DNA of 64,000 bases, taken from the NCBI RefSeq assembly GCF_045037415.1, contig NZ_CP173438.1; one strand, 5' to 3'. The notes below the pieces were generated by a model. It was not told the origin of the DNA and searched no databases. It saw nothing but the letters and a program-made list of their open reading frames with translations. Positions 15,765 to 29,780 of this stretch are shown here, piece after piece; positions within the stretch are counted from its first letter, which is position 1; each line of letters opens with the position of its first letter. This DNA comes from Escherichia coli. GTDB lineage: Bacteria > Pseudomonadota > Gammaproteobacteria > Enterobacterales > Enterobacteriaceae. A program made the translations under genes and the position numbers.

Positions 15765-15855
15765 GGAGAGATGCCGGAGCGGCTGAACGGACCGGTTCTC
15801 GAAAACCGGAGTGGGGGCAACTCCACCGGGGGTTCAAATCCCCCTCTCTCCGCCA
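15765..15855 (+). tRNA. serU: tRNA-Ser (CGA anticodon region), serU-like, 3' part rebuilt from prophage attachment site
   Basis: 91 nt, GGAGAGA acceptor stem pairing with TCTCTCC, long variable arm, ends CCA; differs from canonical serU as recalled by one extra T in the anticodon loop and a compensatory G/C pair in the variable arm. Confidence 0.75.
15793..15855 (+). repeat. attL core: 63-bp direct repeat (tRNA-Ser 3' segment, phage-type variable arm)
   Basis: Identical to 55886-55948 except two positions (GTGGGGG/CTCCACC here versus GTAGGGG/CTCTACC at attR); identity ends exactly at CCA. Confidence 0.7.
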
Positions 15856-19748: not shown

Positions 19749-19958
19749 TTACGGCGCTGTTTTTAATCCTGCCGGGATTTCGTTATTGTCCATGTGAATA
19801 ACTTTATCGACCGGATAACAGTTGCCGGGAATTTTCTGTTCCGCTGCGGCAGCCATGCATTCTTTCATTGAGTTGTACATGCCGGTGATTGCATCAAGCG
19901 ACTCACCAGTATTGAGATATACAGTCAGAATGAGTATGAATAATGTGTTCATCGCCAC
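19749..19958 (-). CDS. Small hypothetical protein with N-terminal hydrophobic segment (AT-rich)
   Basis: 69-aa ORF, low GC, hydrophobic N-terminus LFILILTVYL; no family assigned. Confidence 0.35.
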   Translation of the reverse strand: MAMNTLFILILTVYLNTGESLDAITGMYNSMKECMAAAAEQKIPGNCYPVDKVIHMDNNEIPAGLKTAP

Positions 19959-20137
19959 TCTCCGAAAATACCGAGTTTAAGAAGGGCAATTCTGGAGAGT
20001 ATGGAATTGTCATTCAGCAGGTAGGGTTCATATTTTCTCATATTGATTGCATCCTCGGTGAAATCCCTGTTACTGAGCAGAACACCAATATTAAAGCACC
20101 CGTCAGACGTATTAACGTTTGGTAGTGACGTTTCCAT
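19949..20137 (-). CDS. Small hypothetical protein (AT-rich)
   Basis: 62-aa ORF in AT-rich stretch between exonuclease and rha; no family assigned. Confidence 0.3.
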   Translation of the reverse strand: METSLPNVNTSDGCFNIGVLLSNRDFTEDAINMRKYEPYLLNDNSILSRIALLKLGIFGEWR

Positions 20138-20147
20138 TATCGCGTCC

Positions 20148-20705
20148 TCAACAATGAATTTTTAGCAATTGCTCCACAGTCATATTTTTAATTGCGCTCC
20201 GGTTTACAAGAGTCCATCCTTGTTTCTCCAGATAAAACCGGAAGGTATCCAGGGTGCAGACCATTGCGCCGTCAGGAACGGTTTCAGTGAATTTGATATT
20301 GCCGTGTTCGTCGAGACGGATAACCAGGGTGCGTCCGTCCCCGTGAATCATTTTGTCGGGAGACGGGGCGTTATTCTGGCGCAGTTCTTCCTCCATGCGA
20401 TCGAACTCAGCGATGTAGGCTTCTTTGAAAGTTGCGGCTTTTTTACCTGTGAACCCCATCACCAGGAAAACGAAGCCGTTTTTGGTGATTTGGTACATTG
20501 GGAGTTTGCGCCCGGTTGAGTCGGTGTATTCGCTCGACACAAAATTGTGCTCAGTGAATTTTGCTGAACAGTCCAGATTGCGAATTTTATCCAACACTCG
20601 TTCGTGGCGTTTGCCAAAGAACTCGGCGATCGCAACAGACGTAGTGACAGCGCGACCATTTTCGATGGTTACGTCAGGGTGAGAAAGGGTAAGGATAGTA
20701 GCCAT
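20148..20705 (-). CDS. Rha-family phage regulatory protein (antirepressor-like)
   Basis: Rha-type N-terminal motif VTTSVAIAEFFGKRHERVLDKIRNL; start set at the internal ATG preceded by GGAGG (20705) rather than the track start at 21002. Confidence 0.6.
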   Translation of the reverse strand: MATILTLSHPDVTIENGRAVTTSVAIAEFFGKRHERVLDKIRNLDCSAKFTEHNFVSSEYTDSTGRKLPMYQITKNGFVFLVMGFTGKKAATFKEAYIAEFDRMEEELRQNNAPSPDKMIHGDGRTLVIRLDEHGNIKFTETVPDGAMVCTLDTFRFYLEKQGWTLVNRSAIKNMTVEQLLKIHC

Positions 20706-20873
20706 GATGGCAGCCTCCGCGATGAATTTGATTAACTCACCACCGAGGTTTTCCACGACCATAAGGGTGGTGAGACGTACAGGGGTGGAAATACCGGTCA
20801 TCACGGAACCCGGCCAGCCTTGCGGCTGCCCTGCACGCCCCACCATAATGCGAATGTGGCTGTGCTTAACGCA

Positions 20874-20898
20874 TAAAAAAACCGCCTGAGCGCGGTTA
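20874..20898 (-). terminator. Rho-independent terminator (minus strand) upstream of rha
   Basis: On minus strand AACCGC-GCTCAG-GCGGTT followed by TTTTTTTAT. Confidence 0.45.
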
Positions 20899-21540
20899 TG
20901 CGCCGTGAATGATTTCGGGTTTCCACGCCCGGCACCCGTTTTATGAGGTGCAGGTGCACTATAATTCCACCCGTTCTGGTTTTCAATAGCTACATTCAAC
21001 ATTTTCTCTACCTTTCATCACCGAAGTGAACTTTGTTGATGCGGTGCCTGGTGCCTCCAGGTGACGTTAACCAGTTAACAATTAACGCCGGATACAGAGA
21101 ATCCACCCATAACACTGTTTTTGGTTTTAACTGTTCCGCGTGCGCTTAGCCGCATTCACCGCATCACAAAATTCACTTTAAAAAGGGCGGCAGAGCAGTC
21201 ACGGAGTAGAACTGATACCGCCAAAAGTCACCAGAAAATTGATAACAGAGGGCGTTGCAGCGGGGTTGTCACTTAAGCGTATGGTCAACCTGACAACCCG
21301 GTGTCCTCAACGGGGGAAGGAATAACCCCGCCATACTTACCGCCGCGCCATTTCGCGGATTGCCACAACCGGAAGCGCACGGTCGACGAAAATTTAACGA
21401 CTACCTACAGAGAGACGAACTTCGCCGTGCGCTTTCGCGTTATGCCCTGACTTTTCAGGGATATATCCTTTTCAGTAAACTGTCAGTGCCGGATTCTTAT
21501 CCGTGTCCGGCGCACGCACTCTACCTCACCTGTGAATAAA

Positions 21541-21927: not shown

Positions 21928-22133
21928 CAGTCAGTGTTTCTGGTTAACCAGCGACGCGCGCCAGCTTCAGTTTTAAACGTTTTGCTTCTGGTATACGTCA
22001 TCGCGGTAAACGTGCCGTCCTGGTTGGGAAACACGCCGCATACCAGAGATTCGTTGTTGCCAAGATCGATAGTATCCATGCTGACCTCATTTCCCCTTAA
22101 CGCCAGGGTAGCGGAACTGTTTGCTGAGAACAC
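21927..22133 (-). CDS. Hypothetical phage early protein
   Basis: 68-aa ORF, first gene leftward of the immunity region. Confidence 0.35.
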   Translation of the reverse strand: MFSANSSATLALRGNEVSMDTIDLGNNESLVCGVFPNQDGTFTAMTYTRSKTFKTEAGARRWLTRNTD

Positions 22134-22158
22134 CGTGCGGTGTCTTGATGAGTAGAAT

Positions 22159-22172
22159 TTAGAATAATCTAA
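22159..22172. promoter_or_regulatory. Putative operator TTAGAATAATCTAA (TTAG-N6-CTAA palindrome), left operator
   Basis: Same 14-bp palindromic pattern as two sites in the repressor/cro intergenic region. Confidence 0.4.
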
Positions 22173-22286
22173 GAATTGTGGTCAAGCTTTTTGTGTAGAA
22201 AAACCTAAGTTTTTTTGATGTAAAAAACACAATCATTTGAAAGTTTGTGCTTTTTATTACAGAGAGTGGCGAAAAAAAAGGGGGGG

Positions 22287-22694
22287 TTATTTATTTGCGC
22301 TTCTTTTGCGAGCTTTGAGTAGTTCTTCAAAAAGTTTGTTGAAATTCTCAACTCGAGCACGCATCTCTGACAACAGAGCCTTTTGCTCTGACTCAGGCAG
22401 TGCGTCGAACAGTTGAAGCAACTCTTTTTGATCTTCTGTCAGATTAACTGGCTGATTATCTGGGATCGGTTCGCCTGGTTGCTTATCTTCATCTCCAAAA
22501 AGAAGCCAAGTCGGCGAGCACTGAAGCGCCTGGCTCAGTGCGAATAATCTCTTCCCCGCTGGCTGTGTTTCATCTCTTTCCCATTGAGAAATTGTTACGT
22601 GAGCCACTTTGACCAGCTTACCTAATGCGGCCTGAGACAGTTTTAATTTTTTACGCCTGTATAAGAGGCGAGCACCGAAGGTTTCGTTTTTCAT
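22287..22694 (-). CDS. Phage repressor, XRE/CI-type helix-turn-helix
   Basis: 135-aa ORF; N-terminal HTH SQAALGKLVKVAHVTISQWERDETQP; divergent from a Cro-like gene. Confidence 0.75.
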   Translation of the reverse strand: MKNETFGARLLYRRKKLKLSQAALGKLVKVAHVTISQWERDETQPAGKRLFALSQALQCSPTWLLFGDEDKQPGEPIPDNQPVNLTEDQKELLQLFDALPESEQKALLSEMRARVENFNKLFEELLKARKRSANK

Positions 22695-22695
22695 A

Positions 22696-22709
22696 TTAGG
22701 TAATTCTAA
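22696..22709. promoter_or_regulatory. Putative operator TTAGGTAATTCTAA abutting repressor start codon
   Basis: TTAG-N6-CTAA palindrome; a TTGACT -35-like hexamer follows at 22716-22721. Confidence 0.4.
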
Positions 22710-22746
22710 TTTTTCTTGACTTAGGTTTCTCTACGATCTAGTTTCC

Positions 22747-22760
22747 TTAGGAAAATCTAA
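22747..22760. promoter_or_regulatory. Putative operator TTAGGAAAATCTAA just upstream of cro RBS
   Basis: Third TTAG-N6-CTAA palindrome, immediately 5' of GGAG and ATG 22771. Confidence 0.4.
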
Positions 22761-22770
22761 GGAGTTCGAT

Positions 22771-22998
22771 ATGTTGAAAATTGATGCTATAGCGTTTTTT
22801 GGCAGCAAAACAAAGCTTGCCAATGCCGCAGGAGTTAGGCTGGCAAGCGTTGCTGCATGGGGGAAACTGGTTCCTGAAGGTCGCGCGATGCGTCTACAGG
22901 AGGCATCCGGCGGGGAACTTCAGTACGACCCCAAAGTTTATGACGAATATCGTAAGGCAAAGCGGGCGGGGCGGTTGAACAATGAAAATCACCCCTGA
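22771..22998 (+). CDS. Cro-like / YdaS-like small DNA-binding protein
   Basis: 75-aa ORF divergent from repressor with GGAG RBS; first gene of rightward early operon. Confidence 0.6.
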   Translation: MLKIDAIAFFGSKTKLANAAGVRLASVAAWGKLVPEGRAMRLQEASGGELQYDPKVYDEYRKAKRAGRLNNENHP

Positions 22999-23533
22999 AC
23001 AGGTTTGTGAGGCTCTGGATGCCTGGGTATGTCGACCAGGAATGACACAGGAGCAAGCGACGATATTAATCACGGAAGCATTCTGGGCTCTGAAAGAACG
23101 CCCGAACATCGATGTTCAACGCGTCACGTTTAATGATGGCGAGGTTGATCAACGGGCGCTGGGCGTTAACCGGGTGAAGATATTCGAACGCTGGAAAGCT
23201 ATCGACACCAGGGATAAGCGGAAAAAATTCACGGCGCTGATTCCGGCAATTATGGAGGCTATCCGAATTAGTGATTTCAGGTTGTATCGTGAGATCAGTG
23301 ATGGAAAAAGCATTACGTACATGATCGCCGGATTAAACAAAGAATATGGCGATGTGGTGGAGTCCGGGTTGCTTTTTGCGGATCCAGCTGTTGTGGAACG
23401 TGAGACTGACGAGCTTATAGAAAAAGCTATTGCTTTCAAGCATGCGTATCGTCAGCAATATCAATATTACTTTGCAGATAAACAAATGTCTGCCAGGGGT
23501 TTGTATGAGTATCGATGCACTACGATGGGCTAA
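22982..23533 (+). CDS. YdaT-like / CII-position regulatory protein
   Basis: 183-aa ORF overlapping cro-like stop; position equivalent to lambda cII or Rac ydaT; family assignment by recall only. Confidence 0.45.
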   Translation: MKITPEQVCEALDAWVCRPGMTQEQATILITEAFWALKERPNIDVQRVTFNDGEVDQRALGVNRVKIFERWKAIDTRDKRKKFTALIPAIMEAIRISDFRLYREISDGKSITYMIAGLNKEYGDVVESGLLFADPAVVERETDELIEKAIAFKHAYRQQYQYYFADKQMSARGLYEYRCTTMG

Positions 23534-28553: not shown

Positions 28554-28755
28554 ATACAGCGAACGCCATTGGTTTAGTTGGATATTTACTGTGCCGGACA
28601 AAAACGGTTTGCGGGGAAATCTTAGTTAAGTAGAATAACTGCGGGTGCTTGAGGCTATCTGTCTCAGGCATGAACACCAAAAGGCAGATAGAGAAAAGCC
28701 CCAGTTAACATTACGCGTCCTGCAAGACGCTTAACATTAATCTGAGGCCATATCT

Positions 28756-28815
28756 ATGCGACACATAGAGATTAGCCTCTTACGGACCGAAAGGTCAAGG
28801 AGAAGCAGGCTATGA
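28756..28815 (+). other. Short leader ORF (19 codons) ending in TGA overlapping the hok-like start; mok-like coupling frame
   Basis: ATG 28756, stop TGA 28813-28815 overlapping ATG 28812. Confidence 0.3.
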
Positions 28816-29183: not shown

Positions 29184-29435
29184 ATGATGAACATCGAAGA
29201 ACTGCGTAAAATTTTTTGTGAAGATGGCCTCTATGCTGTGTGCGTTGAAAATGGAAATATTGTTAGTCATTACCGCATTGTGTGTTTGCAAAAAAATGGG
29301 GCTGCGTTAATTAATTTTGTGGATGCCCGAGTGACGGACGGATTTATCTTGCGCGACGGTGAGTTTGTCACTTCATTACAGGTATTGAAAGAGATCGGAA
29401 TAAAAGCTGGGTTTTCTGCTTTTTCAGAAGAATAA
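29184..29435 (+). CDS. Hypothetical protein
   Basis: 83-aa ORF. Confidence 0.4.
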   Translation: MMNIEELRKIFCEDGLYAVCVENGNIVSHYRIVCLQKNGAALINFVDARVTDGFILRDGEFVTSLQVLKEIGIKAGFSAFSEE

Positions 29436-29501: not shown

Positions 29502-29780
29502 ATGGCACGCAACGCAAAATATTACAAACATGATAATTCGACCGTTCTTGCCCACACGCACGAGCGGTATTCTCACGCATTTAAGTCAGACTGGTACCAG
29601 CATCCCCCATGCACTGAAGAACAGGCCGAATGGCTCATTCAGTGTTACCGCAGGCGCGGATGCGAGGTTAAAAAAGCCCTTAGCCTCGACTACCGTCACT
29701 GGATAATCTCCGTCAGGCTTCCTTACTCCGAACGCCCACCGCGTCTGTCCCGCACATTCCAGCAACGCATCTGGAGGTAA
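29502..29780 (+). CDS. Hypothetical protein
   Basis: 92-aa ORF. Confidence 0.4.
   Translation: MARNAKYYKHDNSTVLAHTHERYSHAFKSDWYQHPPCTEEQAEWLIQCYRRRGCEVKKALSLDYRHWIISVRLPYSERPPRLSRTFQQRIWR

Follow-up and report, generated by a model that had tools for sequence, protein, structure and literature searches.

Probable operators of a DicA-like repressor in a P22-derived immunity region of an Escherichia coli prophage

Three copies of the palindrome TTAG-N6-CTAA (TTAGNNNNNNCTAA) surround a repressor gene in an Escherichia coli prophage, and one may ask whether they are the operators of that repressor or ordinary features of AT-rich promoter DNA. The original prediction read them as an OL/OR-type switch for an XRE-type repressor. 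We searched the window, i.e. the whole 64,000-bp stretch of DNA that was analysed, and found exactly three exact matches, at 22159-22172, 22696-22709 and 22747-22760, where they had been placed. The genes and candidate operators of the region are given below, with Oc, Om and Oa defined as in Yun 2012 (PMC3441716) and bioRxiv 10.1101/2023.04.14.536235.

22287-22694, minus strand: DicA-like repressor gene, 135 aa (HTH_3, E 4.3e-14; 63% identity to K-12 DicA)
22771-22998, plus strand: Cro-like gene, 75 aa, DicC-like (P22_Cro family, E 2.5e-13)
22696-22709, unstranded: Oa, OR3-like candidate operator, exact match (TTAGGTAATTCTAA)
22721-22734, unstranded: Om, OR2-like middle operator candidate, 1 mismatch (TTAGGTTTCTCTAC), in the PR-like promoter spacer
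22747-22760, unstranded: Oc, OR1-like candidate operator, exact match (TTAGGAAAATCTAA), positional equivalent of Qin Oc
22159-22172, unstranded: OL1 candidate operator, exact match (TTAGAATAATCTAA), downstream of the repressor gene
22195-22208, unstranded: OL2 operator candidate, 1 mismatch (GTAGAAAAACCTAA), directly upstream of the PL-like -35

The exact sites are both in excess and clustered. In 100 dinucleotide shuffles of the window 0.55 sites were expected and three were reached once. All three lie within 229 bp of noncoding DNA on either side of one gene, and when only these two noncoding stretches were shuffled (153 and 76 bp, AT-rich, GC 0.32-0.34), three sites never arose in 20,000 trials and two sites arose twice. 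The two copies with one mismatch, at 22721-22734 and 22195-22208, were absent from the original prediction. Matches with one mismatch are not enriched across the window (12 observed, 15.6 expected), and these two are thus counted solely because of their position and their conservation in relatives. Other such sites, e.g. at 29680 downstream of rem, fall outside the conserved operator positions.

The repressor and K-12 DicA align over 131 of the 135 residues, with 63% identity (E 6e-62), and the protein annotated as 'dicA' in PPompW prophages is 100% identical to the repressor. It consists of an N-terminal HTH_3 domain and a C-terminal two-helix hairpin; a family search matched only helix-turn-helix families and found no peptidase S24 domain. 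The N-terminal domain matches the DNA-binding domain of P22 C2 (E 1e-21; 1ADR/2R1J/3JXB). In a predicted model (pLDDT 85) this domain has an rmsd of 0.5 A to 3JXB, with a TM of 0.97 relative to the target, and the superposition on the chain of the C2-operator complex spans 66 residues at 62% identity. The Cro-like protein, which probably also reads the palindromes, is 84% identical to K-12 DicC, the differences being mainly in the N-terminal ~31 residues. Foldseek also matched the repressor to 1B0N, 9SF2 and 9IAQ, at only 19-23% identity and ~10 A rmsd over the full length. SinR/SinI and the repressor/AimX pairs of SPbeta-like phages share with our system an XRE helix-turn-helix, a short helical C-terminal domain and inactivation by a small antirepressor. 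This likeness parallels DicA/Rem, but we take it as an architectural analogy and not as a sign of shared C-terminal ancestry.

Knowledge of the DicA/DicC switch of the K-12 prophage Qin, and of its descent from P22, goes back to 1986-88. Qin has the same gene order (ydfA<-...<-dicA / dicC->ydaT-like), TTAG-N6-CTAA at the same three positions, TTGACT and TTGACC -35 boxes, a short repressor without cleavage domain, and rem, DicF and dicB. Its PR geometry, TTGACT-17-TATCTT, at which Yun et al. placed the dicC promoter (PMC3441716), equals that of the window, and so does the arrangement of the left promoter in K-12. Qin Oc (TTGTTAGTCATAACTAACAA) contains TTAG-N6-CTAA, and DicA was shown in 2012 to bind it (PMC3441716). 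Repression through this site in vivo depends on dicA and returns when DicA is supplied from a plasmid; one substitution, A->C, which turns CTAA into CTCA, puts an end to DicA-dependent repression in a heterologous promoter context; and spontaneous mutations permitting the cloning of the Qin region in a high-copy plasmid clustered in Oc (PMC3441716). Reg-Seq also recovered a DicA site at the dicC promoter (PMC7567609). When cloned singly, Qin Oa and Om showed no DicA binding in the in vivo assay, as data not shown in the paper (PMC3441716). Hence, the exact core is not sufficient for binding, the three window sites are probably not equivalent, and the one at 22696 may be weak, cooperative or preferred by Cro.

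The two prophages also differ. That of the window adjoins tRNA-Ser/mtfA and looks largely complete, although its integrase is annotated as frameshifted, whereas Qin is decayed. Over the segment at ~22120-22860 the similarity to K-12 is too low for megablast, whereas the sequences on either side reach 90% identity or more, a pattern that looks typical of a swapped immunity cassette. Within it, the inverted repeat at Oc reads TCCTTAG-N6-CTAAGGA here and TTGTTAG-N6-CTAACAA in Qin, i.e. the core is identical whereas centre and flanks (TCC/GGA against TTG/CAA) differ. The recognition helix has A, T and I at residues 31, 34 and 35, against S, S and V in Qin. Heteroimmunity between the two prophages seems likely.

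If the palindromes are operators they should be conserved in homologous immunity regions, as the original prediction had it, and indeed they are. We compared 143 non-identical regulatory regions, two viral-contig scans having supplied the diversity. Where the recognition helix ends in SQWE, the motif occurs upstream at fixed offsets in 136 regions out of 136 and downstream in 126, most of these loci being close relatives and hence not independent observations. Where the helix ends in FKWE or SKWE, it occurs in none of seven regions, most of which carry CTTA-N8-TAAG instead. The motif is missing from Cronobacter phage phiES15 (50% identity), which reflects the different helix of that phage (SSVSVFKWE) and is no failure of conservation. 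In relatives down to 59% identity, the two upstream exact motifs stop 2 bp and 52-53 bp short of the repressor ATG, and the downstream one lies ~72-120 bp past the repressor stop. The ~249 kb of flanking sequence contain no other exact copy.

Conservation holds within both main helix types. The exact motif stands at the Oa offset in all 77 AHVTISQWE-helix and all 21 SHVSVSQWE-helix regions, and at the Oc offset in 74/77 and 20/21, respectively. An exact site is present in the OL region, taken as the 20-140 nt beyond the repressor's stop codon, in 73 of 76 AHVTISQWE-helix regions and in all 21 SHVSVSQWE-helix regions, including Qin (TTAGTCATGGCTAA). Half-site entropy is 0.000 bits at Oa, 0.035 at Om and 0.057 at Oc, against 0.375 in the other intergenic columns. 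Among 67 close relatives OL1 diverges by 0.03 per site, against 0.44 for the 7 nt between OL1 and the -35; this stretch of 6-7 nt between the PL -35 and OL1 is ~7 times more diverse than synonymous sites, and its natural 7-nt variants include ACAATTC, ATAACTC, GCCCACC and ATATGCC. Overlapping signals could be a partial source of conservation: Oa holds the -10 of the repressor promoter, and the PL -10 and the Shine-Dalgarno reach into the margins of OL1 and Oc, respectively. The central six bases vary with the helix. They are A/T-rich with the AHVTI helix (88% A+T), as in the window, and mostly C/T-C-A-T-purine-purine or CATTAG with the SHVSV helix of Qin (59% A+T). We considered Glu42, the reader of the fifth base in P22, as the cause of this difference between window-type and Qin-type centres, and rejected it: the BUCT708 group has Asp there, yet has window-like A/T-rich centres.

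How do the sites relate to the signals for transcription and translation? To the right of the repressor gene two promoters can be proposed:

22716-22744, plus strand: PR-like promoter (dicCp analogue) of the cro-like gene, read from sequence and from K-12/P22 homology
22703-22708, minus strand: candidate -10 TAGAAT of the repressor maintenance promoter (dicAp/PRM analogue), within Oa, suggested by P22

The repressor/cro intergenic region has the 76 bp originally given, between open reading frames at 22287-22694 (minus) and 22771-22998 (plus), and the TTGACT noticed between its two palindromes lies at 22716-22721. As the -35 of the putative PR-like promoter it would be followed by a 17-nt spacer, a -10 TAGTTT (22739-22744) and a predicted start near 22751. 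We assigned this promoter by homology to K-12 and P22; a consensus promoter scan missed it, since no more than 3/6 positions of the -10 agree. This weak -10 reads TGGTTT in some relatives. Oc spans the predicted start of the cro-like transcript. It is the core of a 20-bp inverted repeat at 22744-22763 (TCCTTAG-N6-CTAAGGA, perfect 7-bp arms), and its overlap with the cro ribosome-binding site, also noticed before, amounts to 2 nt shared with the AAGGAG Shine-Dalgarno at 22759-22764. Om, whose form with one mismatch (GTAGAGAAACCTAA in repressor orientation) is kept across the close family, lies 25 and 26 bp from its neighbours, centre to centre. Oa does adjoin the repressor start, as described, ending 1 nt from the ATG. 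The TAGAAT within it is the probable -10 of the repressor's own promoter, by analogy with P22, and the transcript would probably start ~3 nt before the ATG (about 22697), i.e. it would be near-leaderless; the sequence upstream of this ATG has no Shine-Dalgarno. TAGNAT is retained in all motif-bearing groups. In Reg-Seq dicA had no active promoter in the mutagenized region (PMC7567609), hence our reliance on the P22 analogy for this assignment.

The left-hand region comprises a promoter, a hairpin and the genes downstream:

22156-22185, minus strand: PL-like promoter (dicBp analogue), found by promoter scan, 9/12 matches
22221-22256, minus strand: hairpin with a U-tract after it, located between OL2 and the stop codon of the repressor
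21185-21236: DicF RNA (71.5 bits), downstream of the PL-like promoter
19949-20137: dicB, annotated, downstream of the PL-like promoter

The -35 TTGACC (22185-22180) and the -10 TAAATT (22161-22156) are separated by an 18-nt spacer, the predicted start is near 22149, and OL1 lies in the spacer and the first 3 nt of the -10. A DUF1391/ydfA-like gene also lies downstream, and as the PL-like promoter of the region this element drives the ydfA-like...DicF...dicB operon. OL2, centred 36 bp from OL1, has the conserved form TTAGgtttttCTAC among relatives, three of which (L074, L076 and L077) carry an exact TTAG-N6-CTAA there, while the Qin-type and BUCT708-type groups have a degenerate second site at its position. 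A third OL operator was sought ~36 bp further upstream of OL2 and none was found, the position being occupied by the hairpin; three OL sites are described for Qin (bioRxiv 10.1101/2023.04.14.536235), against the two found here. OR thus has two exact sites and one with a mismatch, and OL one of each, the overlap with PL coming from a scan and those with PR and PRM from homology only. The hairpin is a probable terminator of the repressor transcript: its fold (-11.2 kcal/mol, z = -3.3) was matched in stability by 1 of 200 shuffles. A strict terminator scan gave no call at 22221-22256. As read from their sequences, the hairpin stems of relatives differ and yet remain complementary (ATGCGTC/GATGCAT in L074; ATCCGTTT/AAACGGAT in L079).

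The DicA/DicC immunity type is a derivative of the immC region of phage P22. There, too, three operators ~23-26 bp apart lie between divergent repressor and cro genes, TTGACT is the PR -35 in the equal place, and OL lies within PL. P22 OR3 adjoins the c2 ATG without a gap and includes TAAGAT, the -10 of PRM, in a position and register equivalent to those of Oa; the 5' nucleotide of the RM transcript is 4 nt before the c2 ATG. Om has the position of P22 OR2, which likewise abuts a shared AGTCAAG block, the one with the -35. In P22 the half-site is read by V33, Q37 and E42 (PMC5175364), all three conserved in the window repressor. The differences are in the half-site, which in the same 18-bp frame is TTAG(N) here and TTAA(G) in P22, in residue 32, His here and Asn in C2, and in length: the repressor has 135 aa, against 216 in C2, and by alignment lacks the LexA-like S24 self-cleavage and oligomerisation domain. 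The sites do not follow the 18-bp operator pattern of P22, TTAA(G)-N4-(C)TTAA; P22 OR1-3 read TAAAG or TTAAG.

The likeness to the bistable CI/Cro switch of lambda is one of working. As in lambda, a stretch with three operators would serve the promoters of both repressor and cro, which point away from each other, further operators elsewhere would govern the early operon on the left, and the repressor mRNA would lack a leader. In contrast, lambda operators have 17 bp and no sequence relationship to ours, the C-terminal domain of the repressor is another one, and induction is through RecA, whereas here it is probably through an antirepressor. Phage 434 operators (14 bp, ACAA-N6-TTGT) have the same 4-6-4 layout, with conserved outer bases and a variable centre, and in 434 the centre tunes affinity via DNA shape. 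Their half-site is another one, however, and the repressor is much closer to P22 C2 than to the 434 proteins, 434 Cro giving a weak sequence match (E 3.4e-4).

We are thus confident, if short of certain, that the region is a DicA/DicC-type lambdoid prophage immunity switch and that the palindromes are operators of the DicA-like repressor dimer. The switch first proposed stands in substance, given the DicA/DicC homology, the site positions in Qin and the conservation among relatives. In its likely working, the dimer would read the palindromes through its P22-C2-like helix-turn-helix, with affinities that presumably differ among sites. Bound at Oc (and Om), it would silence the cro-like gene and stimulate its own transcription, as reported for Qin. 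Oa, when occupied by excess repressor or by the Cro-like protein, would turn the repressor gene off. On the other side, OL1, between -35 and -10, would block the ydfA-DicF-dicB promoter, with OL2 directly upstream. The switch would probably be flipped by the Rem antirepressor of the same prophage, and not by RecA:

29184-29435, plus strand: rem-like gene, 83 aa, candidate antirepressor (open reading frame; 'protein Rem' in the identical RefSeq record)

The absence of a LexA-type cleavage domain from the repressor, together with the presence of rem, is what makes induction by an antirepressor probable. In Qin, Rem derepressed dicBp 165-fold, and DicA is RecA-independent and Rem-sensitive (bioRxiv 10.1101/2023.04.14.536235); by analogy we infer that the rem-like product inactivates the repressor here.

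Three other explanations deserve weighing. The best of them is a refinement of the operator reading rather than a substitute for it: Oc (22747) and OL1 (22159) alone would be true repressor operators, and the 22696 site, kept mainly because the repressor promoter has its -10 and start there and/or because the Cro-like protein prefers it, would be the 'off' site of the repressor gene. We see this as a genuine possibility, although an unlikely one. Oa holds TAGAAT in the register of the P22 PRM -10, and it is more conserved than Oc (100% against ~96%), as expected if two functions overlap; yet both its halves are invariant, including the CTAA half, which has no promoter role. The symmetric arms are of 7 bp in Oc and of only 5 bp in Oa, but the equivalent OR3 of P22 and lambda is bound by repressor and Cro alike. 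The failure of Qin Oa and Om to bind DicA alone (PMC3441716) points the same way as the short arms, except that the Oa result came from an isolated site, at which cooperative binding is impossible.

Much less probable, to the point of being barely tenable, is that the sites are read by another protein of the module, e.g. the one in the YdaT/CII position (22982-23533), or by a host factor. Since the module is inherited as a block, co-variation with the helix cannot strictly exclude a linked gene. However, repression at Qin Oc depends on dicA as described above (PMC3441716), and the N-terminal domain is a near-copy of that of P22 C2, in which V33 and Q37, both conserved here, read TTAA half-sites spaced by 10 bp. 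Moreover, K-12 DNA is similar to the query only towards the ends of the latter, which take in the 3' portion of the cro-like gene and the beginning of the YdaT-like gene. Specificity thus appears to lie with the repressor, the operators and the 5' portion of the cro-like gene. Finally, we give practically no credence to chance palindromes, or to promoter and ribosome-binding elements without a regulator, for although the region is AT-rich (GC 0.32-0.34) and every site touches a -10, a transcript start or a Shine-Dalgarno, local shuffles never gave three sites, half-sites outside promoter elements are equally invariant, the motif vanishes exactly where the recognition helix changes, and, for the Qin homologue placed in a heterologous promoter, one base change is enough to end repression by DicA (PMC3441716).

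What does the operator reading imply for immunity specificity? One might speculate that all SQWE-helix DicA-like repressors contact the same TTAG half-site, with specificity residing in the central six bp and the flanking triplets, which co-vary with residues 31, 34 and 35, and that the PL spacer tunes the leakiness of the toxic dicB operon. We hold this joint reading to be doubtful and offer it tentatively. If it were true, DicA-type prophages within one E. coli genome could partly cross-repress, and up to 8 matches to parts of the query do occur in one genome.

The finding holds but is an ordinary one, of little consequence for basic knowledge, and its practical value is in annotation. It places operators, promoters and a terminator for this immunity type, and it puts a candidate DicA site at the promoter of the dicB operon, where Reg-Seq gave 'binding location unknown' (eLife 2020, PMC7567609). 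The PPompW paper and a genomic-SELEX review contain nothing on operator sequences. The relatives also make a clean natural data set, in which changes of the recognition helix are linked to changes of the operator within one repressor clade. This immunity type is present in ~14% of complete E. coli genomes (748 of 5,426), including O157:H7 strains and the PPompW prophages. Some PPompW records lie within records of Stx2a-converting phages.

The 64-kb window contains three exact matches to TTAGNNNNNNCTAA (22159-22172, 22696-22709 and 22747-22760), where dinucleotide shuffles of the window lead one to expect a mean of 0.55. All three lie inside 229 bp of noncoding DNA flanking one small gene. Among 20,000 local shuffles none gave three sites and two gave two (AT-rich stretches only, GC 0.32-0.34). 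When one mismatch is permitted, 22721-22734 and 22195-22208 also match, in the same immunity region. Since one-mismatch matches are not enriched across the whole window, these two sites draw their meaning only from where they lie and from being conserved in relatives. An exact pattern search thus finds the three TTAG-N6-CTAA palindromes where the original prediction had placed them. The prediction was also right on the gene geometry: the repressor/cro intergenic region measures 76 bp, 22696-22709 stops 1 nt short of the repressor ATG, 22747-22760 shares 2 nt with the cro Shine-Dalgarno sequence, and a TTGACT hexamer lies between these two copies. The region contains the following features.

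22287-22694, minus strand: DicA-like repressor gene (135 aa; HTH_3 domain, no other domain)
22771-22998, plus strand: Cro-like gene (P22_Cro-family protein)
22747-22760, 22721-22734 and 22696-22709: right-hand candidate operators Oc, Om and Oa, named after those of Qin, a cryptic prophage of K-12
22159-22172 and 22195-22208: left-hand candidate operators OL1 and OL2
22716-22721 and 22739-22744: PR-like promoter, -35 TTGACT, 17 nt, -10 TAGTTT (sequence and homology)
22185 to 22156: PL-like promoter, TTGACC-18-TAAATT (promoter scan)
22221-22256: hairpin with U-tract (-11.2 kcal/mol, z = -3.3), between the repressor stop and OL2

The sequences support the reading of these palindromes as immunity operators, in a system that is already well known. 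K-12 DicA shares 63% identity with the repressor, and DicC 84% with the Cro-like protein. A YdaT-like gene follows the Cro-like gene, the repressor gene is followed first by a DUF1391/ydfA-like gene, and the counterpart locus in K-12 is annotated dicA/dicC/ydfA. The window is an E. coli prophage, with 100% identity to strain Ecol_AZ146, and PPompW prophages of Shiga-toxin-producing E. coli carry an identical repressor deposited as 'dicA'. Relative to K-12, both flanks show DNA identity of at least 90%, whereas ~22120-22860 falls below megablast similarity; judging from this pattern, the segment is a classic swapped immunity cassette. The system is a diverged member of the DicA/DicC family and probably heteroimmune.

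In K-12 Qin, TTAG-N6-CTAA is found at the same three positions: TTAGCTAATGCTAA adjoins dicA, TTAGTTATGACTAA adjoins dicC and TTAGCCATGACTAA lies within the dicB promoter. Qin Oc, a 20-bp inverted repeat (TTGTTAGTCATAACTAACAA), confers DicA-dependent repression in vivo, which a single A-to-C change (CTAA to CTCA) abolishes; spontaneous mutations that permit high-copy cloning of the region cluster there, and from Oc DicA both represses dicC and has a stimulating effect on dicA (Yun et al. 2012, PMC3441716). In the same study the sequence-defined operators Om and Oa, each cloned alone, showed no DicA binding (data not shown). Of the DicA sites, Reg-Seq recovered the one at dicC and listed the one at dicB as of unknown location; it found no active dicA promoter within the mutagenized region (PMC7567609). 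Three operators each have been described for dicCp and dicBp, the latter being derepressed 22-fold by dicA deletion and 165-fold by the Rem antirepressor; independence from RecA and mitomycin C is also reported (Ragunathan and Vanderpool, bioRxiv 10.1101/2023.04.14.536235). What our analysis adds is modest: a DicA-type operator placed within the dicB-operon promoter, and a hypervariable patch of 6-7 nt between the PL-like -35 and OL1.

Conservation in homologous immunity regions, which the original prediction had proposed as a check, was examined in ~165 loci from two viral-contig scans and named phages. Collapsing identical regulatory regions left 143, many of the supporting loci being close relatives. 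Exact motifs recur at fixed offsets in relatives with identities as low as 59% (for a phage deposited under the name Stenotrophomonas phage BUCT708), ending 2 bp and 52-53 bp before the repressor ATG and lying ~72-120 bp beyond its stop; no exact motif was found elsewhere in ~249 kb of their flanking DNA. The motif follows the recognition helix. With (A/S)HV(T/S)(I/V)SQWE it is present upstream in 136/136 regions and downstream in 126/136; with FKWE or SKWE it is absent from both sides in all seven (0/7 and 0/7), most of which have CTTA-N8-TAAG at the corresponding operator positions. These seven DicA-family loci without TTAG-N6-CTAA (L131, L132, L134, L142, L145, L138 and L084), set against the SQWE loci, would represent a natural specificity switch inside one repressor clade. 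Of the computational evidence for the repressor reading the TTAG-N6-CTAA sites, we regard this co-variation as the strongest. Together with the DicA/DicC homology and the conservation, it supports the predicted OL/OR-type switch for an XRE-type repressor.

The central six bases also differ with the helix, being A/T-rich (88% A+T) with AHVTI, the type of the window, and C/T-C-A-T-purine-purine or CATTAG (59% A+T) with SHVSV, the type of Qin. In the close family, entropy is 0.00-0.06 bits in half-site columns vs 0.375 bits in other intergenic columns, and OL1 diverges by 0.03 per site among 67 loci. Promoter and ribosome-binding signals that overlap the sites may be responsible for part of this conservation. 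The middle site is conserved in its one-mismatch form, and the equivalent of 22195-22208 is an exact TTAG-N6-CTAA in three relatives (L074, L076, L077). In the BUCT708 group (L089-L124) a TTCG half-site recurs in weak operators, the middle OR site being a symmetric TTCG-N6-CGAA and OL2 a TTCG-N6-CTAA, which suggests that the weakness of these sites is maintained by a specific substitution and does not stem from random decay.

Repressor residues 2-69 match the DNA-binding domain of P22 C2 (E 1e-21), and over 66 residues the AlphaFold model (pLDDT 85) fits operator-bound C2 with an rmsd of 0.5 A. The operator layout is the same. P22 OR1 (ATTAAAGAACACTTAAAT), OR2 (ACTAAAGGAATCTTTAGT) and OR3 (ATTTAAGATGACTTAACT) are spaced by 23 and 25 bp, the window sites by 26 and 25 bp. 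The P22 PR -35 TTGACT abuts OR2, as TTGACT abuts the middle site here; OR3 runs right up to the c2 ATG and contains the PRM -10 TAAGAT, the RM transcript starting 4 nt before the ATG, and a TAGAAT sits in the same register inside the ATG-proximal site of the window. By analogy, Oa probably overlaps the -10 and start of the repressor promoter. In an 18-bp frame the two differ: xxTTAGx-N4-xCTAAxx in the window, xxT(T/A)AAG-N4-CTT(A/T)Axx in P22, so that the fourth base is G here and A there. According to PMC5175364, citing Watkins 2008, C2 reads TTAA by Val33 and Gln37 and the next G/C by Glu42, the central 4 bp being uncontacted. Val33, Gln37 and Glu42 are kept in the window repressor, whereas Ser31-Asn32 became Ala-His and Ala34 became Thr; we infer that one of these changes might account for the A-to-G shift.

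Oc spans about -5 to +10 of the PR-like promoter and Om lies within its spacer (sequence and homology). OL1 lies within the spacer and -10 of the PL-like promoter and OL2 just upstream of its -35; a third site, looked for in the OL region, was not found. In the mechanism we propose, a repressor dimer joined via a two-helix C-terminal hairpin (H87-98 and H101-134 in the model) would first fill Oc and OL1, silencing the Cro-like gene and the dicB operon and stimulating its own promoter. Degenerate sites would be occupied cooperatively, Oa would be autoregulatory and Cro-preferred, and the switch would be flipped by Rem, not RecA. By analogy only, the repressor is built overall like SinR and the SPbeta-like phage repressors, proteins that small antirepressors neutralise.

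The hairpin at 22221-22256 probably terminates the repressor transcript; its equivalents in relatives, as read from their sequences, have different yet complementary stems. Directly 3' of the repressor stop codon, at 22272-22286, the repressor strand has a run of C7 followed by one of T8; the length of each varies among relatives, about C4-C8 and T6-T9. The 7 nt between the PL-like -35 and OL1 (22173-22179) are hypervariable at constant length, with 18 variants in 67 otherwise near-identical loci. Their mean pairwise difference is 0.44; for comparison, the neighbouring repressor gene gives 0.064 at its four-fold degenerate sites, and the operator and 5' UTR flanking the patch give 0.03-0.05. 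This is the most diverse 7-column window of the immunity-region alignment, its mosaic right end excepted; promoter tuning, a mutational hot spot or an old recombination junction are candidate causes. The leftward operon has in its predicted 5' UTR a perfect inverted repeat (ACACCG-TG-CGGTGT, 22130-22143), a possible RNA element, either nut-like or for processing. About 45 nt around it are highly conserved, even between window-type and Qin-type prophages.

The leftward operon includes the following features.

21185-21236: DicF RNA (Rfam)
~21032-21115: truncated dicB pseudogene, just upstream of the C4/isrK/Rha module
20875-20951: isrK RNA (Rfam)
20763-20850: C4 antisense RNA (Rfam)
20148-21002: ORF for a Rha-family regulatory protein, the C4 and isrK RNAs lying upstream of or overlapping it
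19949-20137: dicB (annotation)

Since it carries DicF RNA and an annotated dicB, this operon is the dicB operon. The module inserted between DicF and dicB (20148-21115) resembles the c4-ant cassettes of P1/P7 or the isrK antirepressor cassettes of Gifsy, and by that analogy could provide a second induction route. The prophage, of ~39 kb, adjoins tRNA-Ser/mtfA and also carries rem. Just upstream of rem lies a hok/sok-type toxin-antitoxin locus (28643-28814), with a sok antitoxin RNA (Rfam, 106.7 bits) beside an annotated hokD toxin gene. At the prophage end, beside a frameshifted integrase gene, the RefSeq tRNA-Ser (15765-15855) is given by ARAGORN as an irregular 'tRNA-???' with a 2-nt anticodon and scores below threshold with the Rfam tRNA model; this tRNA gene may have been altered by integration.
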